A stretch of 64,000 nucleotides of DNA from Pirellulales bacterium. GTDB lineage: Bacteria; Planctomycetota; Planctomycetia; Pirellulales; JAICIG01. The notes beneath the pieces were generated by a model, which worked only from the letters and a program-made list of their open reading frames with translations, ran no database searches and was not told the DNA's origin. The stretch covers positions 2,984 to 66,983 of the forward strand of contig DATFDL010000224.1 of assembly GCA_035252155.1 (NCBI GenBank). Reading direction: 5' to 3'. The translations under genes were made by a program, and so were the position numbers. Of the stretch, positions 3,687 through 42,593 are shown one piece after another (the stretch's first letter is position 1; each line of letters begins with the position of its first letter).

Positions 3687-5885
3687 TCAGTCCTTAAACA
3701 AGAACTCAGGGGTGTTCAACAACGCCCACAGCAAGTCTTCGGTCGCCTGCCGACGGTTGGCCGCCGAGGCGAACCACTCGCCGCCGACCTGCCGCTCTTC
3801 AGCGTCCGGCCACCGAGAATATACCAAAAGATACAGCTCTTCCACGATTTTATCGGCCGGCTGGTCGCTGGCGGCCAGCCGGGCCGCTCGTCCGTCGTCG
3901 CTGGTCACTTTGCGGTGTACGTTCGGCGCATTCATCAAGTGCAAGGTTTGCACCATCGTGGTTTCGGGCGTGCGCTCGCAGGGTGGATCCTGATTTGGAT
4001 CGGGCCGCCCAAAGGCGTCGAGAAACAGCGACTCCACCCGGTGCGACCAGATTTGCGTGGCCCGCGACCCGCCCGGCAACGCCGAAAACGTCTCGGGCAC
4101 TTCGGTAATGTCGCTAACGGCGTCGAGCAGCACCTCGGCCCGCAACCGCTGCCGATAGTGGCGAGAGTAGCTGCGCGTGTCGGCCACGTTGCGGTCGTTG
4201 GCCAGCGACGACAGACCGTAGACGTGCGAAGTCATGATTGTCCGCAAGAGGCGCTTCATGTCGAAGCCCATCTCACGGAAATGTTTGGTCAGCGCCGAGA
4301 GCAGCGCTTCGTTCGAGGCGGGGTTGGTCACGCGCAGGTCGTCGACCGGATCGACCAGCCCGCGGCCCATCAGCTCGGCCCACACGCGATTGACGGCCAC
4401 CTTGGCGAAATACGGATTGTCGGGCGAAAGCATCCAGTCGGCCAGCGCCTCGCGCAGGTCTTCTTCACCTTCGGTCGTGCGGGCCGAACCGAACAGCGGC
4501 TTGGGCGGCACCGGCTGTCCGCTGGTCGGATGCGTCACCGTGCCCTTGGCCGCGGCAAACACCATCTCTTCGCCACCAGAGATGGGCGGCGACAGACCGG
4601 TGCCCTTACGCCCGACGTGCGAAAACCAGGCGGCGAAGCCGTAGAAATCGTCCTGTCCCCAGGCCTCGAACGGATGATGATGGCACTTGGCGCACTCCAG
4701 CCGAATGCCGAGAAACAGTTGGCTGACCGCCGTGGCGATTTCGGGCGGCTCGCGACGGTCGCGAAACAGCGTGACGGCGCCGTTGCGCCAGGTGCTGCCG
4801 CGGGCCGTCACCAGCTCGCGCACAAATTGGTCGTAAGGCAGGTTGCGGCGGAAGGCGTCGCGCAGCCAGGCGTCGAGGCTGAACGTCGCTTTGACGCCCA
4901 CGCGATAGGCGTTGGGCCGCAACAGATCGGCCCACTTGTTGGCCCAGAAATCGGCGTACTCCTCGCGGGCCAACAGCGCGTCGATCAGCCGCTCGCGCTT
5001 CGAGGGCGATTGATCGGCCAGAAACGCGCGGGTTTCGTCGGGCGTGGGCAGCCGGCCGATCGCGTCGAGATACGCCCGTCGCAGAAACGCGCTGTCGGTC
5101 GCCGGTTCGCTGGGGGTGACGCCCAGCTCTTGCAGCTTCGCCCAAACATGTTCGTCGATGAAATTCTTGCGCGGCAGGGCGGCATAAACGGCCGCCTCGA
5201 CCGGCTCGGCCAGCGGGATGAGCGTGTTCCAAGTGGCGATGTGGCTCATATAGCGGGCCATGATCGCGGTTTCGCCCGGCAGGATGCCGGCCTTCACCAA
5301 CCCGTGTCGATCGACGGCGACGATCGCGCTTTCGTTTGATTGAAACGTGCTGCCGCGCGTCACGTCGCGCGTCGAGCCATCGGAGTAGTGGGCGGTGACG
5401 GTGAGTTGCTCGCTTTGGCCAGCGGCCAGCTTATGCTCGTCGGGCGACAGCGAGATGCGCACCAACTCGGGGTCGCTGGGCAAGCGTCGTGGCATGCCTT
5501 GTTCGATCCAGCGCCGCACCAGTTCGTATTCTTCGCTTCCTTTTTGCAATCGTTCGCCGCCGCCGTGCGGCAATTCGGCCGACGCTTTTCGCAGCAGCAG
5601 GCTGCGCTCGGCGGCGGCCGGAAACAGCCGCCGTCCCCGAGCGTCTTTTACGATCCGCGCGTAGTCAAACTCGGCGTCGAAGCCCAGCAGCGAGAGTTGA
5701 AACCCGTTTTGCCCGCGTGCCTTGCCATGGCAAGCGCCCTGATTGCAGCCCGCCGCCGTCAGTACCGGCAGCACATCCAACTCAAACACCACCCGCGTCG
5801 CCGTCGGTTCGGCAGCCAGCGCCGGCCGTGCGGCCAGTAAGACGACCAAAGCGCACCACATTAGCAGCAGCGTACGGTGGACCAC
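3687..5885 (-). CDS. DUF1549/DUF1553 domain-containing protein with Ig-like (Big_2) domain
   Basis: Signal peptide, CNQGACHG, FWANKWADLLR, CAKCHHHPFE and NRVWAELMGRGLVDPVDD motifs. Forms an operon with the DUF1501 gene 3 nt downstream. Confidence 0.9.
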   Translation of the reverse strand: MVHRTLLLMWCALVVLLAARPALAAEPTATRVVFELDVLPVLTAAGCNQGACHGKARGQNGFQLSLLGFDAEFDYARIVKDARGRRLFPAAAERSLLLRKASAELPHGGGERLQKGSEEYELVRRWIEQGMPRRLPSDPELVRISLSPDEHKLAAGQSEQLTVTAHYSDGSTRDVTRGSTFQSNESAIVAVDRHGLVKAGILPGETAIMARYMSHIATWNTLIPLAEPVEAAVYAALPRKNFIDEHVWAKLQELGVTPSEPATDSAFLRRAYLDAIGRLPTPDETRAFLADQSPSKRERLIDALLAREEYADFWANKWADLLRPNAYRVGVKATFSLDAWLRDAFRRNLPYDQFVRELVTARGSTWRNGAVTLFRDRREPPEIATAVSQLFLGIRLECAKCHHHPFEAWGQDDFYGFAAWFSHVGRKGTGLSPPISGGEEMVFAAAKGTVTHPTSGQPVPPKPLFGSARTTEGEEDLREALADWMLSPDNPYFAKVAVNRVWAELMGRGLVDPVDDLRVTNPASNEALLSALTKHFREMGFDMKRLLRTIMTSHVYGLSSLANDRNVADTRSYSRHYRQRLRAEVLLDAVSDITEVPETFSALPGGSRATQIWSHRVESLFLDAFGRPDPNQDPPCERTPETTMVQTLHLMNAPNVHRKVTSDDGRAARLAASDQPADKIVEELYLLVYSRWPDAEERQVGGEWFASAANRRQATEDLLWALLNTPEFLFKD

Positions 5886-16891: not shown

Positions 16892-16964
16892 GGCTCGTTC
16901 GTCTAGCGGCTCAGGATGCCGGCCCTTCAAGCCGGAGGCCGGGGTTCGACTCCCCGACGAGCTA
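16892..16964 (+). tRNA. tRNA-Glu(TTC)-like
   Basis: Acceptor GGCTCGT/ACGAGCT (G1-U72), Glu-type D arm GTCTAGCGGCTCAGGA, anticodon stem CCGGC/GCCGG with loop CCTTCAA (C rather than U at 33), T arm CGGGG-TTCGACT-CCCCG. Confidence 0.7.
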
Positions 16965-16973
16965 CTTGAAAAG

Positions 16974-17046
16974 CAGAACGTAGGAGAGCGGCCACTCCGC
17001 CTGGTCGGGGGCCAGGAGACCGCCGGTTCGAGTCCGGCCGTTCTGA
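16974..17046 (+). tRNA. tRNA-Pro(GGG)-like
   Basis: C1-G72 and A73, D stem GGAG/CTCC, anticodon stem CCTGG/CCAGG with loop TCGGGGG (C at 33), T arm GCCGG-TTCGAGT-CCGGC. Confidence 0.7.
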
Positions 17047-17065
17047 CAGACTGAACGAAGAATCA

Positions 17066-17137
17066 CGGGATGTAGGGTAGCGGTGGCCCGCGTGCCTTGG
17101 GAGCACGAGCAAGTGGGTTCAACTCCCACCGTCCCGA
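17066..17137 (+). tRNA. tRNA-Pro(TGG)
   Basis: Canonical cloverleaf: CGGGATG/CGTCCCG, anticodon stem CGTGC/GCACG with loop CTTGGGA, T arm GTGGG-TTCAACT-CCCAC, A73. Confidence 0.9.
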
Positions 17138-17148
17138 CTCGTAATCAT

Positions 17149-17237
17149 AGTCCGGTGTTGTAACGGAAGCATGGCGATCTGATACGTCGCCGGCGACCAC
17201 GCTGCGCGCGGTGCCCGTTCGACTCCACCCCGGACTA
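17149..17237 (+). tRNA. tRNA-Ile(GAT)-like carrying a 21-nt hairpin insert
   Basis: Acceptor AGTCCGG/CCGGACT, anticodon arm GCGAT-CTGATAC-GTCGC, A73. The T stem GGCG..G/CCACC closes only if 17196-17216 (ACCACGCTGCGCGCGGTGCCC) is looped out. Confidence 0.5.
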
Positions 17238-17309
17238 CTTCGCCAAAACAAGGAGAACCACAATGCGGCAGCGACAGCGGCTCAAACGCATACGCCAGAC
17301 CGACAACAT

Positions 17310-17380
17310 GGGGTCGTGGCGTAACGGTAGCGCATCCGCCTTTTAAGCGGAAGGGTGAGGGTTCGACTCCGGCTGGGTGC
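17310..17380 (+). tRNA. tRNA-Lys(TTT)-like, probably defective
   Basis: The 5' two-thirds fold well (GGGGTCG, D stem GCG/CGC, anticodon arm TCCGC-CTTTTAA-GCGGA) and a GGTTCGACTCC T-loop is present. I could not find a 3' strand that closes the T stem or acceptor stem. Confidence 0.35.
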
Positions 17381-17388
17381 TTATAGAG

Positions 17389-17484
17389 CGGCGTGTGGGA
17401 AAGCCTGGAATTCCGCGTGCTTCGGGAGCACGAAACCGACCAACGCTGCGCGTCGGTGCCCGGGTTCAAATCCGGCCACGCCGA
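17389..17484 (+). tRNA. tRNA-Pro(CGG)-like carrying a 23-25 nt hairpin insert
   Basis: Acceptor CGGCGTG/CACGCCG (C1-G72, A73), D stem GGAA/TTCC, anticodon arm CGTGC-TTCGGGA-GCACG (same stem as the TGG isoacceptor). Insert at 17439-17461 lies just 5' of GGTTCAAATCC. Confidence 0.5.
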
Positions 17485-17490
17485 CTCGAT

Positions 17491-17565
17491 TGCGGTGGGA
17501 CCCGTGCTGGTACGGGTAGGCGGCTGTTAACCGCCCTGACGCAGGTTCGATTCCTGGCGCCGCAG
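17491..17565 (+). tRNA. tRNA-Asn(GTT)
   Basis: U1-A72 and G73, D stem ACCC/GGGT, anticodon arm GGCGG-CTGTTAA-CCGCC, T arm GCAGG-TTCGATT-CCTGG. Confidence 0.85.
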
Positions 17566-17579
17566 CTCACGATGAAAAC

Positions 17580-17664
17580 GGAACGGCAAGCCAACGGGCG
17601 ATGGCAGCCGCCTCGAAAGCGGTCGAGCAGCAATGCCTTGGGAGTTCGACTCTCCCTCCTTCCG
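17580..17664 (+). tRNA. tRNA-Ser(CGA), class II
   Basis: Acceptor GGAACGG/TCCTTCC (one C-C mismatch), anticodon arm GCCGC-CTCGAAA-GCGGT, long variable arm, T arm GGGAG-TTCGACT-CTCCC, G73. Confidence 0.8.
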
Positions 17665-17671
17665 CCTTCAC

Positions 17672-17763
17672 GTGCCCTTGGCCGAGCGGCAAAGGCTCCA
17701 GCCTTCCAAGCTGGCGCGACCAACGCTGCGCGTCGGTGCCCGGTTCGACTCTCGCAGGGCACT
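17672..17763 (+). tRNA. tRNA-Gly(TCC)-like carrying a 23-nt hairpin insert
   Basis: Acceptor GTGCCCT/AGGGCAC, U73, anticodon arm CCAGC-CTTCCAA-GCTGG. The T stem GCG..GG/CTCGC closes only if 17719-17741 is looped out. Confidence 0.5.
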
Positions 17764-17773
17764 CTTTCAATGA

Positions 17774-17844
17774 TCGGGGATCGGCTAACGGTAGGCTCCC
17801 TGGCTTTGAACCAGGAGATGGAGGTTCAAGTCCTTCTCCCCGAA
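17774..17844 (+). tRNA. tRNA-Gln(TTG)
   Basis: Acceptor TCGGGGA/TCCCCGA (U1-A72), anticodon arm CCTGG-CTTTGAA-CCAGG, T arm GGAGG-TTCAAGT-CCTTC. Confidence 0.8.
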
Positions 17845-17880
17845 CTTCGGTCGCGATGGCCGTGTCCCAAGAATACATGA

Positions 17881-17974
17881 TCCGGGGCAGTTGCTGCTGG
17901 TAGTAACGCCTGGCTCCGGGCACCGTGCGCAGCATGGTCGCAGGAAGCCATTGGTTCGATTCCAACCCCCGGAA
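17881..17974 (+). tRNA. tRNA-Arg(CCG)-like carrying the hairpin insert in inverted orientation
   Basis: Acceptor TCCGGGG/CCCCGGA, D stem GTTG/TAAC, T arm ATTGG-TTCGATT-CCAAC. The anticodon stem 5' strand CCTGG and loop CTCCGGG are followed by a ~19-nt hairpin (the 17918-17938 element) before the 3' strand GCAGG. Confidence 0.45.
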
Positions 17975-17986
17975 CTTTAGACATAC

Positions 17987-18071
17987 GGAGGTCATCCGGC
18001 CGGATGAGGAGCCTGTCTTGAAAACAGGTGGCGGCGCAAGTCGCTTGTGAGTTCGAGTCTCACGGCCTCCG
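17987..18071 (+). tRNA. tRNA-Ser(TGA), class II
   Basis: Acceptor GGAGGTC/GGCCTCC, anticodon arm CCTGT-CTTGAAA-ACAGG, long variable arm, T arm GTGAG-TTCGAGT-CTCAC, G73. Confidence 0.8.
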
Positions 18072-18085
18072 CCTCTGGTGAAACA

Positions 18086-18158
18086 CGTCCCGTGGCCTAG
18101 TAGCGAAGGCAGCGCCTCCACACGGCGAAGATCGACAGTGCGAGTCTGTCCGGGACTA
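18086..18158 (+). tRNA. tRNA-Val(CAC)-like
   Basis: D stem GCC/GGC, anticodon stem CGCC/GGCG with loop TCCACAC (C at 33), T arm GACAG-TGCGAGT-CTGTC (G at 55), C1-U72 mismatch, A73. Confidence 0.55.
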
Positions 18159-18159
18159 C

Positions 18160-18234
18160 GTCCTCGTGGAGCAGCCAGGAGTGCTCGCCTGCTTGTCAGG
18201 CAGGAGGTCGCGGGTTCAAGTCCCGCCGGGGACG
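18160..18234 (+). tRNA. tRNA-Asp(GTC)
   Basis: Canonical: GTCCTCG/CGGGGAC, D stem GAGC/GCTC, anticodon arm CCTGC-TTGTCAG-GCAGG, T arm GCGGG-TTCAAGT-CCCGC, G73. Confidence 0.9.
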
Positions 18235-18248
18235 CTTTCATAAAGCAC

Positions 18249-18323
18249 GGCGCGGTACGCAAACAGGCAAAGCGGCCAAGCTCAAACCTTGGTGACCTGT
18301 CGGTTCGATTCCGACCTGCGCCA
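18249..18323 (+). tRNA. tRNA with anticodon CAA (Leu) on a short-variable-loop (class I) body
   Basis: Acceptor GGCGCGG/CTGCGCC, D stem CGC/GCG, anticodon arm CCAAG-CTCAAAC-CTTGG, ~6-nt variable loop, T arm GTCGG-TTCGATT-CCGAC, A73. Confidence 0.6.
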
Positions 18324-18459
18324 CTCGCACAACGAGCAACATGCGTCGGTTGAGCATTCGGATACAAAATCAGCGTCTATTGAGTGAACAGTGCTGGCCG
18401 GCGTTAACCGTGCGACGGCAATACGATCGAGTCCTGAACCCCGAACCTTGAACCCTCCC

Positions 18460-19050
18460 ATGGCCAAGATGCTCAACAGGCCGGCGCTGGTGCTCAACCG
18501 CAACTGGCAGCCGGTGAACGTCGCCACCGTCGCTCGCGCGCTGGTCATGCTCTTCAATGAGGCGGCCCGCGTCGTCGATCCGGCTGACTACCAGCTCTAC
18601 ACCTGGGCTGACTGGTCAGGGCTGGCTCCGCGCGACGGCGAGCCGTTCATCCAGGCGGTGAGCATGCGGTTGCGCGTACCGGAGGTGATCGTGCTGGCGG
18701 GCTACGATCGGCTGCCCGAAGCGGCCGTGGCGTTCAGCCGGCGGAACATCTTCAAGCGCGACCACTACACTTGCCAGTATTGCGGCGTACAGCCGGGCGT
18801 CGAGGAGCTGTCGATCGACCACGTAATTCCGCGGTCGCAAGGCGGCATCTCGACCTGGGACAACTGCGTGCTGGCGTGCGTGGAGTGCAACAAGCGCAAG
18901 GCCAACCGCACGCCGGCTGAGGCGGGCATGAAGCTGCGCAAGCAACCTTGCCGCCCGCAGTGGAAGCCGCTCTATGCTGCGCACAGCGTGCGTGTCGAGA
19001 GCTGGTCGAAGTTTGTCAGCGAGGCTTATTGGAGCGTCGAACTCCGCTGA
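18460..19050 (+). CDS. HNH endonuclease
   Basis: DHYTCQYCGVQPGVEELSIDHVIPRSQGGISTWDNCVLACVECNKRKANRTP is an HNH motif with two CxxC pairs. The likely start is the ATG at 18460 (MAKMLNRPALVLNRNWQPVN). Confidence 0.9.
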   Translation: MAKMLNRPALVLNRNWQPVNVATVARALVMLFNEAARVVDPADYQLYTWADWSGLAPRDGEPFIQAVSMRLRVPEVIVLAGYDRLPEAAVAFSRRNIFKRDHYTCQYCGVQPGVEELSIDHVIPRSQGGISTWDNCVLACVECNKRKANRTPAEAGMKLRKQPCRPQWKPLYAAHSVRVESWSKFVSEAYWSVELR

Positions 19051-19066
19051 GCCGCAGTTGAAGCAA

Positions 19067-19096
19067 GCCGATCCAAGCGGGGCAGCTTGGATCGGC
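19067..19096 (+). terminator. 12-bp perfect hairpin after the HNH gene
   Basis: GCCGATCCAAGC-GGGGCA-GCTTGGATCGGC. No U-run follows, so it could be a processing or terminator element. Confidence 0.4.
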
Positions 19097-19101
19097 CTTA
19101 C

Positions 19102-19171
19102 AGGATCGTGCTCCTGGGAGAGCCAGCGGTCTCCAAAGCCGCTTTACGGGGTTCGACTCCTCGCGATCCTG
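19102..19171 (+). tRNA. tRNA-Trp(CCA)-like
   Basis: Acceptor AGGATCG/CGATCCT, anticodon arm GCGGT-CTCCAAA-GCCGC, T arm CGGGG-TTCGACT-CCTCG, G73. The D arm is unusually small (CTC-CTGG-GAG). Confidence 0.65.
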
Positions 19172-19174
19172 CTT

Positions 19175-19245
19175 GTCCTGCGAGTGTGATGGAAGCACGG
19201 CAATCTTCGGAACTGTAAGACGGGGTCCGATTCCTCGGCGGGGTG
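19175..19245 (+). tRNA. tRNA-Arg(TCG)-like
   Basis: Acceptor GTCCTGC/GCGGGGT (three G-U pairs), D stem GTGT/GCAC, anticodon arm GCAAT-CTTCGGA-ACTGT (one mismatch), T arm CGGGG-TCCGATT-CCTCG (C at 55). Confidence 0.55.
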
Positions 19246-19264
19246 CTGCTGGTCATAACAACTT

Positions 19265-19337
19265 GTCCTCGGAGTGTGCCGGATTCGCACTCGAGCCCGC
19301 GAAGCTCGTAGACCAGGTTCGATTCCTGGCGAGGACG
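19265..19337 (+). tRNA. tRNA-Arg(GCG)-like
   Basis: Acceptor GTCCTCG/CGAGGAC, D stem GTGT/GCAC, anticodon stem CGAGC/GCTCG with loop CCGCGAA (C at 33), T arm CCAGG-TTCGATT-CCTGG. Confidence 0.7.
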
Positions 19338-19349
19338 CTTGAACAACCC

Positions 19350-19422
19350 GACGCTGGAGCCAGACGGCACGGCAACCGCCTGCAGAGCGGTTTCAAGCGG
19401 GTTCGACTCCCGCCGGCGTTTC
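19350..19422 (+). tRNA. tRNA-Cys(GCA)
   Basis: Acceptor GACGCTG/CGGCGTT, D stem GCC/GGC, anticodon arm ACCGC-CTGCAGA-GCGGT, T arm GCGGG-TTCGACT-CCCGC, U73. Confidence 0.85.
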
Positions 19423-40863: not shown

Positions 40864-42129
40864 TCAACCATCTGACGAAAATGTTTGCGGAGCTTCAGAC
40901 TCCTTCTCGTGAAAGAATTCGGGCTCGATGCCCAATTCATACATTTCCTGTATCAAGACACAGATGTTGTGGCATAGCAGCTTGCACAGAACCTCGTTCA
41001 CCATCGCCACGTCGGTCTTGCTCCGAATGTGGTCACGGAACTTGGTCTTAATCATCATGAAGGTGCTCTCAACATTGCTCCGCTGATGGTAATGCTTAAG
41101 AAACTCCTCTCGCTTAAACTTAAAGTAATGATACATCTTTGCCCATAGACCACCGCCTTTTCCCGTGTGAATCGCCTTGAAGCAGATGTAGGGCACTGCT
41201 CCATAAGCGGCGACCGTGTTCGTGTTCTTAATGCTGGCATAGCCCTTGTCTGCGCAAACTTCCTCCATCGTAAAGTTCTCGGCGGTTGTTTTAACCAGAT
41301 CGGGCAACAACTTGGTGTCGCTGGCATCCTTGTCCCGGATCTCGACCGCCGTTACAACATTTGTTTTGACGCCGCACATGATATGGACCTTCACCCACTC
41401 ATGCTGGCGGCGCTCGACCCCGTTCCGGTGATCGAGCCACTTAATGAACCTTGAAGTCGTGAAGCCAGTGCTGTCGGCAGCGAACACCGTCTCGACTTCC
41501 TTAAGTGGCAGGCTCGCCATGACGATCAAATCCCGCAGAACTGGCGTGATTTCAGGGTTTTGCAGATAGTTAAAGATCGAGTTGAAGTGGGGCACTCGGC
41601 TGATATAGCCTTTCTCTTTGGCTTCCCGCAGGTCGGTCATAAAGCGCCGACCACTGACCGTGCTGTAAATCTTAAATGTTGCAGCGAAGATGGCATCACC
41701 GAGCGGCAAGAACGGTCGCCCGCCCTTGGGCTGCTCCCGCTTGGGTTCATCAATCGTCCCGCATAGATCCGCCAGAAGTTGTTGGAACTTGGCTTTCTCG
41801 TTGGTTTGGGCAGCATTATATGCCCTCCAAACTTGCGGATAGGTCTTGCGTTCCTTGATCTCGACCGAGTTCGTCACGATCTCGCTCCCATCCGGGCTTT
41901 TTTCCCGCTTGATGAGGAACTCGACGGCGAAGATGTGCTTGCACTTACCGCCCCGAGTCTCGTGGTCTGGACAGGTGCAATGTGGGTTGCTGGGGTCGGG
42001 GCAGACTGTATACCTGCCCTTGCCCGATTGCGACGGGACGAGGTAAACGCCGCCCTTCTGCTCAATCCTGCACATCGCAGCGATGCGGAGTCCCCGTTGT
42101 TCCCGAACGTCCAGATTGGCTGTTTCCAT
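40864..42129 (-). CDS. DDE transposase (IS5/IS4-like) with N-terminal SWIM zinc finger
   Basis: CTCPDHETRGGKCKHIFA (SWIM). FAADSTGF, CADKGY and YHQRSNVESTFMMIKTKF match DDE_Tnp_1-type motifs. I could not identify terminal inverted repeats for a discrete IS. Confidence 0.8.
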   Translation of the reverse strand: METANLDVREQRGLRIAAMCRIEQKGGVYLVPSQSGKGRYTVCPDPSNPHCTCPDHETRGGKCKHIFAVEFLIKREKSPDGSEIVTNSVEIKERKTYPQVWRAYNAAQTNEKAKFQQLLADLCGTIDEPKREQPKGGRPFLPLGDAIFAATFKIYSTVSGRRFMTDLREAKEKGYISRVPHFNSIFNYLQNPEITPVLRDLIVMASLPLKEVETVFAADSTGFTTSRFIKWLDHRNGVERRQHEWVKVHIMCGVKTNVVTAVEIRDKDASDTKLLPDLVKTTAENFTMEEVCADKGYASIKNTNTVAAYGAVPYICFKAIHTGKGGGLWAKMYHYFKFKREEFLKHYHQRSNVESTFMMIKTKFRDHIRSKTDVAMVNEVLCKLLCHNICVLIQEMYELGIEPEFFHEKESEAPQTFSSDG

Positions 42130-42404: not shown

Positions 42405-42520
42405 TGGCGCAAACCTTTGGCTATCAATGGCTTGCGACAGGCACAAAAATTCCGGTGCGGCTCGTTGACTTTGTCGAGCCAGTCGTCTAAGTTAACCCAT
42501 AGTTGATTGCTCAAAAGACG

Positions 42521-42593
42521 TTGCGGGGGAGGGAATTGAACCCTCATTCGACGCTTTAAAGGCGTTCGTCCTACCCAATTAGACGACCCCGCA
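42521..42593 (-). tRNA. tRNA with anticodon TTA (reads UAA; ochre-suppressor type)
   Basis: Reverse strand: TGCGGGG TC GTC-TAATTGGGTAG-GAC G AACGC-CTTTAAA-GCGTC GAAT GAGGG-TTCAATT-CCCTC CCCCGCA A. It has a perfect 7-bp acceptor (U1-A72), a perfect T arm, U33, A36-A37-A38 and A73. Confidence 0.75.

Follow-up and report, generated by a model that had tools for sequence, protein, structure and literature searches.

A mobile-looking family of very small hairpin repeats in Planctomycetota and its load in tRNA gene arrays

How does one and the same short hairpin come to lie inside four neighbouring tRNA genes? The question is raised by a 64,000-nt stretch of the genome of a Pirellulales bacterium (contig DATFDL010000224.1 of assembly GCA_035252155.1, positions 2,984 to 66,983), called the window in what follows, where a GC-rich palindrome of 23 or 25 nt interrupts the genes for tRNA-Ile(GAT), tRNA-Pro(CGG) and tRNA-Gly(TCC) in one orientation and a fourth tRNA gene in the other. 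We name this hairpin element E and label the loci compared with the window by L and a number. A sequence-only reading of the window had left three explanations side by side, namely a tiny mobile palindrome that targets tRNA genes, short introns, and a tolerated extra arm. Comparison with related loci favours the first of these in a modified form: E is quite probably a dispersed, mobile-looking hairpin family that spreads by loop replacement and accumulates in redundant L-arrays, a published type of tRNA gene array.

The four copies in the window (Table 1) have the sequences and coordinates that were first reported for them. The 27-nt block CGACCAACGCTGCGCGTCGGTGCCCGG is indeed identical in the Pro and Gly genes (17437-17463 and 17717-17743), and the copy in the Ile gene forms with the inverted copy a 28-nt inverted pair that is 89% complementary. 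The degenerate pattern CGACCA(N)NGCTGCGCN(N)CGGTGCCC matches the window at exactly these four sites, against 0.00 expected from 100 dinucleotide shuffles, and no further E-like sequence was found in the remaining 63 kb. The unit can be written as CG-ACCA(N)NGC-TGC-GCN(N)CGGT-GCCCG, an imperfect palindrome of 23-26 nt with the tail GCCCG and the head CG(A), which is preceded by C in 77 of 135 strict copies (57%). The stem of 7-8 bp with a 3-nt loop proposed from the sequence can be folded and covaries, but its fourth pair is an A.C mismatch in the forward copies (G.U in the inverted copy). A free 24-26-mer is no more stable than its shuffles (z -1.3 to +0.3); folding energy thus gives the isolated element no support, and the evidence for the hairpin rests on covariation.

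One genome per species of the Genome Taxonomy Database (GTDB) was scanned with the window's degenerate pattern, and the copy counts used throughout (135 strict copies, 163, 171 or 189 copies), like the hosts and contexts described, are those among the matches listed. E occurs in at least 119 stretches of GTDB representative genomes, nearly all of them from Planctomycetota, with Pirellulales, which predominate, Thermoguttaceae, Lacipirellulaceae, Bythopirellula and other planctomycete metagenome-assembled genomes (MAGs) as hosts. The loci fetched hold 163 copies from 66 assemblies; an assembly has from about 2 to dozens of copies, with up to 20 in the fetched loci. Matches in other phyla are few; in most of them the inner bases cannot pair, and they seem to be due to chance. 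Among the strict copies the free inner positions are complementary in 117 of 135, in 11 different variants, and the free apex tells the same story, as 29 of 45 distinct apex sequences are perfect palindromes where 1.65 are expected by shuffling (at most 7 in 1000 shuffles). The basal CGACCA...CGGTGCCCG is conserved, with the A.C mismatch present in 154 of 189 copies and a Watson-Crick pair in most others. On the top strand, some variants of the apex form tetraloops of the C(UUCG)G type.

The flanks of E are very diverse. They include loops of repetitive extragenic palindromes (REPs), other palindromes, tips of unrelated inverted repeats, intergenic hairpins, open reading frames (ORFs) and, in both orientations, tRNA genes; most copies lie in intergenic hairpins. 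E is found in the loop of the canonical GTAG-type REP/REPIN arm GTAGGGTGGGTCGAGCGCAGCGAGCCCCACC, in the palindrome GGGGACAGTCCC... and nested within itself, for example as CGACCAACGC[E]GTCGGTGCCCG. The canonical GTAG REPIN family (GTAGGGTGGGTCGAGCGCAGCGAGCCCCACC and its inverted partner) is itself abundant in Thermoguttaceae MAGs (among them L009, L012, L013, L019, L021, L045, L053, L068, L084 and L114), and its pairs typically carry E in the loop of one arm, the other arm being without it.

Two further contexts deserve mention in their own right. In IS3-type transposase ORFs of three MAGs (L031, at about 5134-5200, L082 and L085) E lies at one shared position, where the conserved 'SDNG' catalytic-core motif would be, with an apparent net gain of 21 nt in frame; the native sequence here is taken from the family motif, no empty copy having been observed. 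In L007 an inverted repeat of about 160 nt (228-388 and 1991-2151, 95% complementary) has E at its centre, brackets a serine-acetyltransferase-like gene and recurs on other contigs of its MAG (also L094 and L118); since the bracketed gene does not encode a transposase, the idea of a unit resembling an insertion sequence was dropped.

What E does to its target can be read from many orthologous or paralogous pairs of empty and filled sites. Aligning insert-free orthologs, already seen as the way to the exact insertion points, does define them: there is no target-site duplication at any of these sites, and 3-7 target nucleotides, mostly 5, are missing, with a 24- or 26-nt E unit in their place. 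In GTAG-type REP arms the empty form GGTGGGGCTCGC-TGCGC-TCGACCC was found 14 times and the filled form, in which TGCGC has given way to CGACCA...GGTGCCCG, 17 times, always in one orientation and with many E subtypes. When E nests, it is its own loop TGCGC that is replaced. Among tRNA genes, the D loop of tRNA-Phe has GTTTA in L051, a forward E in L004 and a reversed one in L102, the anticodon loop of tRNA-Leu(TAA) has TAAAC in L106 and E in L022, tRNA-Leu(GAG) has AGGTC in L022 and E in L102, and tRNA-Pro(TGG) has AAGTG in the window and E in L004. Replaced segments were also found at sites in Trp, Gly and Pro(CGG) genes, and as TGAAC in tRNA-Gln(CTG).

Frequently the target is identical over 4-6 nt to one end of E at the junction. 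At the Ile(GAT) junction native CGGTGG matches the E tail CGGTGC, at the Pro(GGG) junction the E head, reverse-complemented, equals native TGGTCG, and in the palindrome GGGACAGTCCC the loop CCGAGA matches CCGACCA of E. Most targets are loops found only in folded single strands: those of REPs and, in the cloverleaf, the D, anticodon and variable loops. A minority of copies overwrite stem positions, such as the 3' strand of the T stem in L064 and L002. From these sites and junctions we infer that E acts on folded single-stranded nucleic acid, by homology-assisted copying.

The inverted copy of the window illustrates such a replacement at a position where a tRNA cannot do without its own bases. 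Its host, read at first as an Arg(CCG)-like gene, is a tRNA-Gln(CTG): it sits between Gln(ttg) and Ser(tga) like the tRNA-Gln(ctg) of L022 (7143-7218), to which it is about 90% identical outside the anticodon loop. The uninterrupted gene reads CCTGG-CTCTGAA-CCAGG in L022, L130 and L148, and the window and L106 read CCTGG-CTC-(CGGGCACC...GGTCG)-CAGG, with TGAAC replaced. E overwrites positions 35-39, including the anticodon positions 35-36, so the apparent 'CCG' is a junction artefact, and the supposed anticodon loop CTCCGGG is a chimera of CTC from the tRNA and CGGG from E. The gene is probably a pseudogene. The window and L106 share an identical junction with different E subtypes. Furthermore, the arrays L022 and L106 come from one MAG and are 92% identical, and L022 is filled at Leu(TAA) and empty at Gln(CTG) whereas L106 shows the reverse; this reciprocal pattern argues for recurrent, site-specific insertion of E.

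The three forward copies lie at the junction of variable loop and T stem, and this site was followed most closely in tRNA-Ile(GAT). When metagenomes were searched with the gene's 5' half, the orthologs came to 31, the window copy and the loci already compared included; 23 of them are E-free and 8 have E. E-free alleles read GCC-GGC-GGTGG-TTCGACT-CCACC, with GGC as the variable loop and GGTGG as the T-stem strand, and the window reads GGCG-ACCACGCTGCGCGC-GGTG-CCC-G. Three types of junction exist: GGCGACCACGC... in the window, GGCCGACCACCGC... in L004, L125 and L130, and GGACCAACC... in L101, L128, L151 and L152. As each has its own acceptor-stem lineage (A1, G1, T1), E must have been acquired independently at least three times at this one hot spot. 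All three types keep native GGTG within the E tail, giving GGTG^CCC(G)^G. In eight E-free alleles (L124, L131, L137, L143 and L147-L149 among them) GGTTGG takes the place of GGTGG ahead of the T loop; their T stem has a bulge or mismatch of one base by nature, so that slight irregularity occurs here even without E. For Gly(TCC) and Pro(CGG) there are 8 and 9 E-free orthologs, respectively, and T-stem 3' strands like those of the window are found in the Gly gene of L153 (GCGAG/CTCGC) and in the Pro genes of L051 and L153 (GCCGG/CCGGC). In Gly(TCC) E overwrote four of the five bases of the T-stem 5' strand, and in Pro(CGG) it merged with GCCGG to give GCC^CG^GG.

These genes could nevertheless yield long tRNAs. 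On the most resilient of the alternatives, mature tRNAs that can be charged would keep the three forward copies as a long arm like that of class II, either neutral or used, for instance in protein recruitment or synthetase recognition, and we hold this to be possible but doubtful. The Rfam covariance model for tRNA aligns the Ile, Pro and Gly genes over their full length as cloverleaves in which 16-22 nt of E fall in the variable region, with the 5' two-thirds of the element as an insertion. The model T stem of 5 bp consists of the 3' tail of E and the G residues that follow, with a bulge of 1-3 nt: GCC^cg^GG/CCGGC in Pro, GCC^c^GG/CUCGC, with one non-standard pair, in Gly and GGUG^ccc^G/CCACC in Ile. 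The T stem had been said to close only if E is looped out (GGCG..G/CCACC in Ile, and likewise in the others); the model closes it from the E tail instead, and the E-free Ile orthologs give GGTGG/CCACC. An ordinary variable arm with an intact T stem, held earlier to speak against the special nature of the element, is thus present in part: E is accommodated as a variable arm, with Pro and Gly above the gathering score, but the T stem is bulged. The tolerated extra arm accordingly stays in play for the three forward copies, with the same reservation.

Several other observations suit a retained arm. ARAGORN accepts all three genes, the variable site is the tRNA site most used, always in a single orientation, and E-bearing Ile(GAT) alleles persist in several samples with acceptor stem and E hairpin intact. 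In engineered tRNAs the variable arm can carry hairpin aptamers at its tip (PMC7590224), and in the L-array operon of Anabaena 23 of 26 tRNAs are expressed and charged (PMC8421152). Set against these, E-free alleles predominate, making up 23 of the 31 Ile alleles and 8 or 9 out of 10 in Gly and Pro, the latter two genes have lost part of their native T-stem 5' strand to E, a CCC bulge lies inside the T stem, and the Ile gene stays below the gathering score. Tolerance is also made harder by the position of the bulge, since that part of the T stem is the contact region for EF-Tu. Minimum-free-energy folds of the E-bearing genes are not cloverleaves, and E lands as well at sites that kill a tRNA (anticodon, D loop, 3' strand of the T stem). 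That the three genes give working tRNAs is on balance doubtful, and the three variable-site tRNAs seem to be tolerated carriers rather than adaptive designs. The placement of E by the Rfam model, as a long variable-region insertion between the anticodon and T stems, may recall class II tRNAs; in contrast to these, the hosts have the anticodons GAT, CGG and TCC and do not belong to the Leu, Ser, Tyr or Sec types, and most of their orthologs have no arm, so the arm is not ancestral.

The array that holds the four genes appears to fit the published L-array type, putatively supernumerary and with an HNH endonuclease ORF inside. L-arrays are supernumerary, patchy and horizontally spread, often cryptic and often adjoined by a homing endonuclease, and Planctomycetes are among the phyla listed with them, neighbouring homing endonuclease included (PMC8421152). 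The window shares with them a dense run of tRNA genes on one strand, an embedded HNH ORF and syntenic relatives, and differs in its hairpin-repeat insertions, which we did not find described for array tRNA genes in the L-array literature. The HNH ORF itself recalls the homing endonuclease beside the Anabaena L-array (PMC8421152).

How strongly is E tied to such arrays? The broad pattern puts 38 of 171 copies (22%), spread over 13 of 66 assemblies, no more than 90 nt from a T-loop box, and about 80% of copies in non-tRNA contexts. The commonest tRNA site is exactly the variable site, with 15 of the 38 copies, always in forward orientation. Array-bearing metagenome contigs hold 38 copies in 108 kb, about one per 2.8 kb, and every E-bearing tRNA seen belongs to an array, none being isolated. 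Given that arrays would make up well under 0.1% of a genome, this would amount to an enrichment of roughly a hundred-fold. Of the tiny mobile palindrome that targets tRNA genes, the best supported of the three original options, the mobile palindrome therefore survives but its exclusive liking for tRNA genes does not; conversely, E is a dispersed repeat, as in the opposing picture of a genome-wide REP without preference for tRNAs, and yet its association with tRNA arrays is strong. Relaxed selection in redundant arrays probably contributes to the load, as does, probably, the density of hairpin loops and of T-stem strands resembling the ends of E (GGTGG, GTGGG, GCCGG). Intra-array copying anchored on GGTTCRA may add to it, a process considered because of the 27-mer identical in Pro and Gly.

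Could such local copying be all there is? E would then have entered the array once and been passed between tRNA paralogs by gene conversion at the GGTTCRA box, perhaps triggered by the HNH enzyme, and would not be mobile on its own. The 27-nt identity of Pro(CGG) and Gly(TCC) agrees with this, as does the tendency of an array towards one subtype (L004, L125 and L130 have CC/GG in four genes), the fact that E at variable sites always adjoins G(G)GTTCRA, and the conservation of the HNH ORF across arrays; a passage of PMC8421152 cites the phage T4 homing endonuclease SegB as preferring tRNA genes. We consider the idea unlikely, because it leaves unexplained the four-fifths of copies far from any tRNA, the anticodon-loop and D-loop sites with both orientations at one of them, and the three junction types within a single Ile gene.

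A little less likely again is a cis element selected by the host, a protein-binding hairpin or one for RNA stability or termination, kept at many loci in a shared regulatory role. Conservation of the base CGACCA/CGGTGCCCG with its asymmetric A.C mismatch beside a free apex, the C(UUCG)G-type tetraloops and the majority of copies in intergenic hairpins would be natural for such an element. Its presence or absence among close relatives, its nesting in itself and in REP loops, its insertion into ORFs and essential tRNA positions, and a copy number that ranges so widely between assemblies would not, and Rfam holds no family that matches E, the sole match (CRISPR-DR20) being at chance level with 17 bits against a gathering score of 42.

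Short introns, excised from precursor tRNAs by some further activity, have next to nothing in their favour beyond the inverted copy, which lies in an anticodon loop near the canonical intron position and in whose minimum-free-energy fold the E hairpin sits stacked on top of a lengthened anticodon stem: the E-free orthologs show that essential native nucleotides are replaced (TGAAC in Gln, 3-7 nt at the variable/T-stem junctions including part of the Gly and Pro T-stem 5' strand), so excision could regenerate neither anticodon nor T stem, both orientations occur at one site in the tRNA-Phe D loop, most copies lie outside tRNAs, the folds show a plain hairpin with no evident bulge-helix-bulge (two 3-nt bulges round a 4-bp helix), a geometry raised by the sequence-only reading, and 23-26 nt is too small for a group I or II ribozyme, with no intron match in Rfam.

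Which known repeats does E resemble? The closest parallel is found in cyanobacteria. The small dispersed repeats SDR1-8 of Nostocaceae (Elhai et al. 2008, Genome Res 18:1484) are reportedly 21-27 nt long and form a hairpin with compensatory changes; they are said to occur within other repeats and nested in their own copies, and to be limited to a single clade. Elhai et al. 2008 reportedly argued that they are the smallest mobile elements, and no transposase is said to be known for them. E is of about the same size, has a covarying hairpin, nests in itself, lies inside other repeats and is confined to a clade. It is unrelated to the SDRs in sequence, however, has its hosts in Planctomycetota and not Nostocaceae, and differs in its many empty/filled pairs with replacement of about 5 nt, in the two orientations at one site and in its concentration in L-arrays. 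E works like an SDR, yet is not a member of that family. The small dispersed repeats of Elhai et al. 2008 are cited in passages of PMC5861425 and PMC3116915.

REPs and REPINs with their REP-associated tyrosine transposases (RAYTs; PMC3733652, PMC3116915, PMC6006769) offer a second comparison. REPs are imperfect palindromes of 20-40 nt with unpaired head and tail, forming dispersed multi-copy families with sub-types that sometimes lie in palindromic targets and ORFs, and in all this E is similar. REP families are, however, defined by GTAG or CGTC tags (PMC3733652), whereas the head of E is (C)CGA/CG without either tag, and E is mostly single or nested and does not form inverted dimers. Its position inside the loop of canonical GTAG REPs marks it as a separate layer. 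No RAYT/Y1 transposase domain was found in the 12 ORFs next to or between E copies, the scope being those ORFs and not whole genomes.

Class-3 HuH-Y1 genes, which occur mainly in Planctomycetes and Acidobacteria, are flanked by imperfect hairpins with a 5' 'CnGA foot' (PMC6006769). Here the left flank and head of E read C-CGA in 77 of 135 copies, E is an imperfect hairpin and the phylum fits; the published hairpin CCGAGCCGCGACCGTAAGGGAGCGGA (Legionella, Solibacter) is not similar to E, and identity with the published examples was rejected. No class-3 HuH-Y1 gene was seen among the ORFs adjoining E, a result for these ORFs and not genome-wide. Rickettsia palindromic elements (RPEs), of which RPE-4 and RPE-6 are the CGTC-4 and CGTC-1 families (PMC3733652), are selfish palindromes tolerated in frame within genes, as E is inside the IS3-type transposase ORFs; they measure 100-150 bp as opposed to 23-26 nt, and E replaces target bases. 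The exact 26-mer was not found in IMG/VR, and the degenerate pattern matched viral contigs only twice; one IMG/VR contig has a tRNA array with E in tRNA-Arg(CCG). Neither the sequence of E nor a description of it was found in the literature searched. E is a new family of very small planctomycete hairpin repeats, marked by its loop-replacement footprint and by its striking frequency in tRNA L-arrays.

As to how this family moves, we propose that E would spread at the DNA level and that, in place of simple insertion, it would replace about 5 nt in the unpaired loop of a sequence already able to form a hairpin. Its targets would be the loops of GTAG-type REPs and of other palindromes, the loop of E itself and, in tRNA genes, the D, anticodon and variable loops, and short identities between the target and the ends of E would guide the copying. 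The route might be template switching or gene conversion, or a hairpin-specific enzyme of single-strand DNA such as an HuH-Y1 protein. L-arrays, both redundant and dense in hairpins, would then accumulate E. A bolder version makes E an autonomous loop-replacing hairpin, in which an activity on folded strands (single-stranded DNA at the fork, or RNA followed by reverse transcription) would swap about 5 loop nucleotides in either orientation with the help of 4-6-nt identities, and would as a side effect turn class I tRNAs of L-arrays, time and again, into expressed and charged long-arm tRNAs; taken as a whole, we find this rather improbable.

A number of points weigh against the reading of E as a family that spreads by loop replacement. 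No mobilising enzyme was found by Pfam and a crude HuH...Y motif screen among the 12 ORFs bracketed by or beside E copies, all of which are ordinary or housekeeping genes. Replacement of target bases is the signature of no characterised transposition pathway, and the head of E neither carries a REP tag nor matches the published class-3 HuH-Y1 hairpins. The window itself has all its four copies in tRNA genes; only other genomes show spread independent of tRNAs. The persistence of E-bearing Ile alleles in several metagenomes, with acceptor stem and hairpin intact, would also fit a selected function. Finally, filled REP arms could have multiplied partly as units and not by separate insertions of E.

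Table 1. Element E, its host genes and the surrounding tRNA array, with coordinates in the window
Feature	Position	Strand	Length and sequence	Remarks
tRNA gene array	16892..19422	+		16 ARAGORN calls and at least 3 degenerate genes; holds all four E copies
tRNA-Ile(GAT)	17149..17238	+	90 nt with E	ARAGORN; Rfam 24.5 bits, below the gathering score of 29
E copy 1	17194..17216	+	23 nt, CGACCACGCTGCGCGCGGTGCCC	variable-loop/T-stem junction of tRNA-Ile(GAT); pattern match
tRNA-Pro(CGG)	17389..17485	+	97 nt with E	ARAGORN; Rfam 38.5 bits
E copy 2	17437..17461	+	25 nt, CGACCAACGCTGCGCGTCGGTGCCC	in tRNA-Pro(CGG)
tRNA-Gly(TCC)	17672..17764	+	93 nt with E	ARAGORN; Rfam 35.4 bits
E copy 3	17717..17741	+	25 nt, identical to copy 2	in tRNA-Gly(TCC)
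Disrupted tRNA-Gln(CTG)	17881..17974	+		no ARAGORN call; sole match tRNA-Sec, 20 bits
E copy 4	17918..17940	-	23 nt, reversed	overwrites the anticodon loop of tRNA-Gln(CTG)
HNH endonuclease ORF	18391..19050	+		Pfam HNH, 3.5e-15; embedded in the array

The array packs about 20 tRNA genes, all on the forward strand, into 2.5 kb of the window, and Rfam adds weak tRNA-like genes at 17315-17375, 17881-17973 and 19175-19245. Its gene order is common to L022, L102 and L106, related arrays have 28-35 genes each, and the HNH ORF is 57-78% identical to ORFs within the arrays of five Pirellulales assemblies (L022, L102, L043, L054 and L106). On the reverse strand of L054, at about 2150-2761, the array HNH gene has some 19 residues more than the window protein, and a copy of E and E-like fragments lie within the ORF. 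The array is flanked by ordinary cellular genes (copper amine oxidase, TPM-domain proteins, a CBM9-glucose/sorbosone dehydrogenase) at 62% G+C, and the window matches a soil-type metagenome contig in ENA. A phage origin was rejected, given these cellular neighbours and a megablast search of 50,697 phage records that returned only 32-nt tRNA-Ser matches. An interpretation of the array in terms of allo-tRNAs or tRNA-Sec-like genes fared no better, the tRNA-Sec matches being ordinary class II Ser genes or weak.

Some neighbouring genes show decay or odd features of their own. A Lys(TTT)-like gene (17311-17385, forward) has a broken T stem and acceptor stem, a partial Rfam match of 35.3 bits and no ARAGORN call; its orthologs are intact in L101, L051 and L102 and carry E at the variable site in L004, L123, L125, L130 and L149. 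Flanked by Trp(cca) and Arg(gcg), the tRNA-like sequence at 19175-19245 (forward) falls short of the Rfam gathering score with 26.9 bits; L022 and L121 carry Thr(tgt), Arg(ccg) and Arg(tcg) in this stretch, and the sequence is probably a decayed array gene. Far from the array, at 42520-42593 on the reverse strand, there is a well-formed tRNA that scores 59.9 bits in Rfam. Its anticodon loop is CTTTAAA and its anticodon TTA, which would read the UAA stop, and ARAGORN calls it 'tRNA-Stop'. It adjoins a DDE_Tnp_1 transposase ORF (40864-42129, reverse strand) at the edge of a lower-GC stretch from 38 to 44 kb.

Very small hairpin repeats such as REPs and cyanobacterial SDRs are common. E, with dozens of clean empty/filled pairs, independent repeat hits at one nucleotide and both orientations at one site, all of them with loop bases replaced and no duplication of the target, constrains the way in which the smallest of these repeats may move and makes it experimentally testable. 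In planctomycete MAGs, E accounts for spurious anticodon calls and for Ile, Pro, Gly, Lys and Trp tRNAs that are annotated as oddly 'long'; the 'Arg(CCG)' of the window is a tRNA-Gln that is probably dead. That class I tRNAs of putatively supernumerary arrays have repeatedly received a hairpin where variable loop and T stem meet is at the same time a natural experiment on how much extra structure is tolerated. If E-bearing long-arm tRNAs are indeed expressed and charged, they would give new tRNA architectures, and possibly ambiguous decoding, a natural way to arise.

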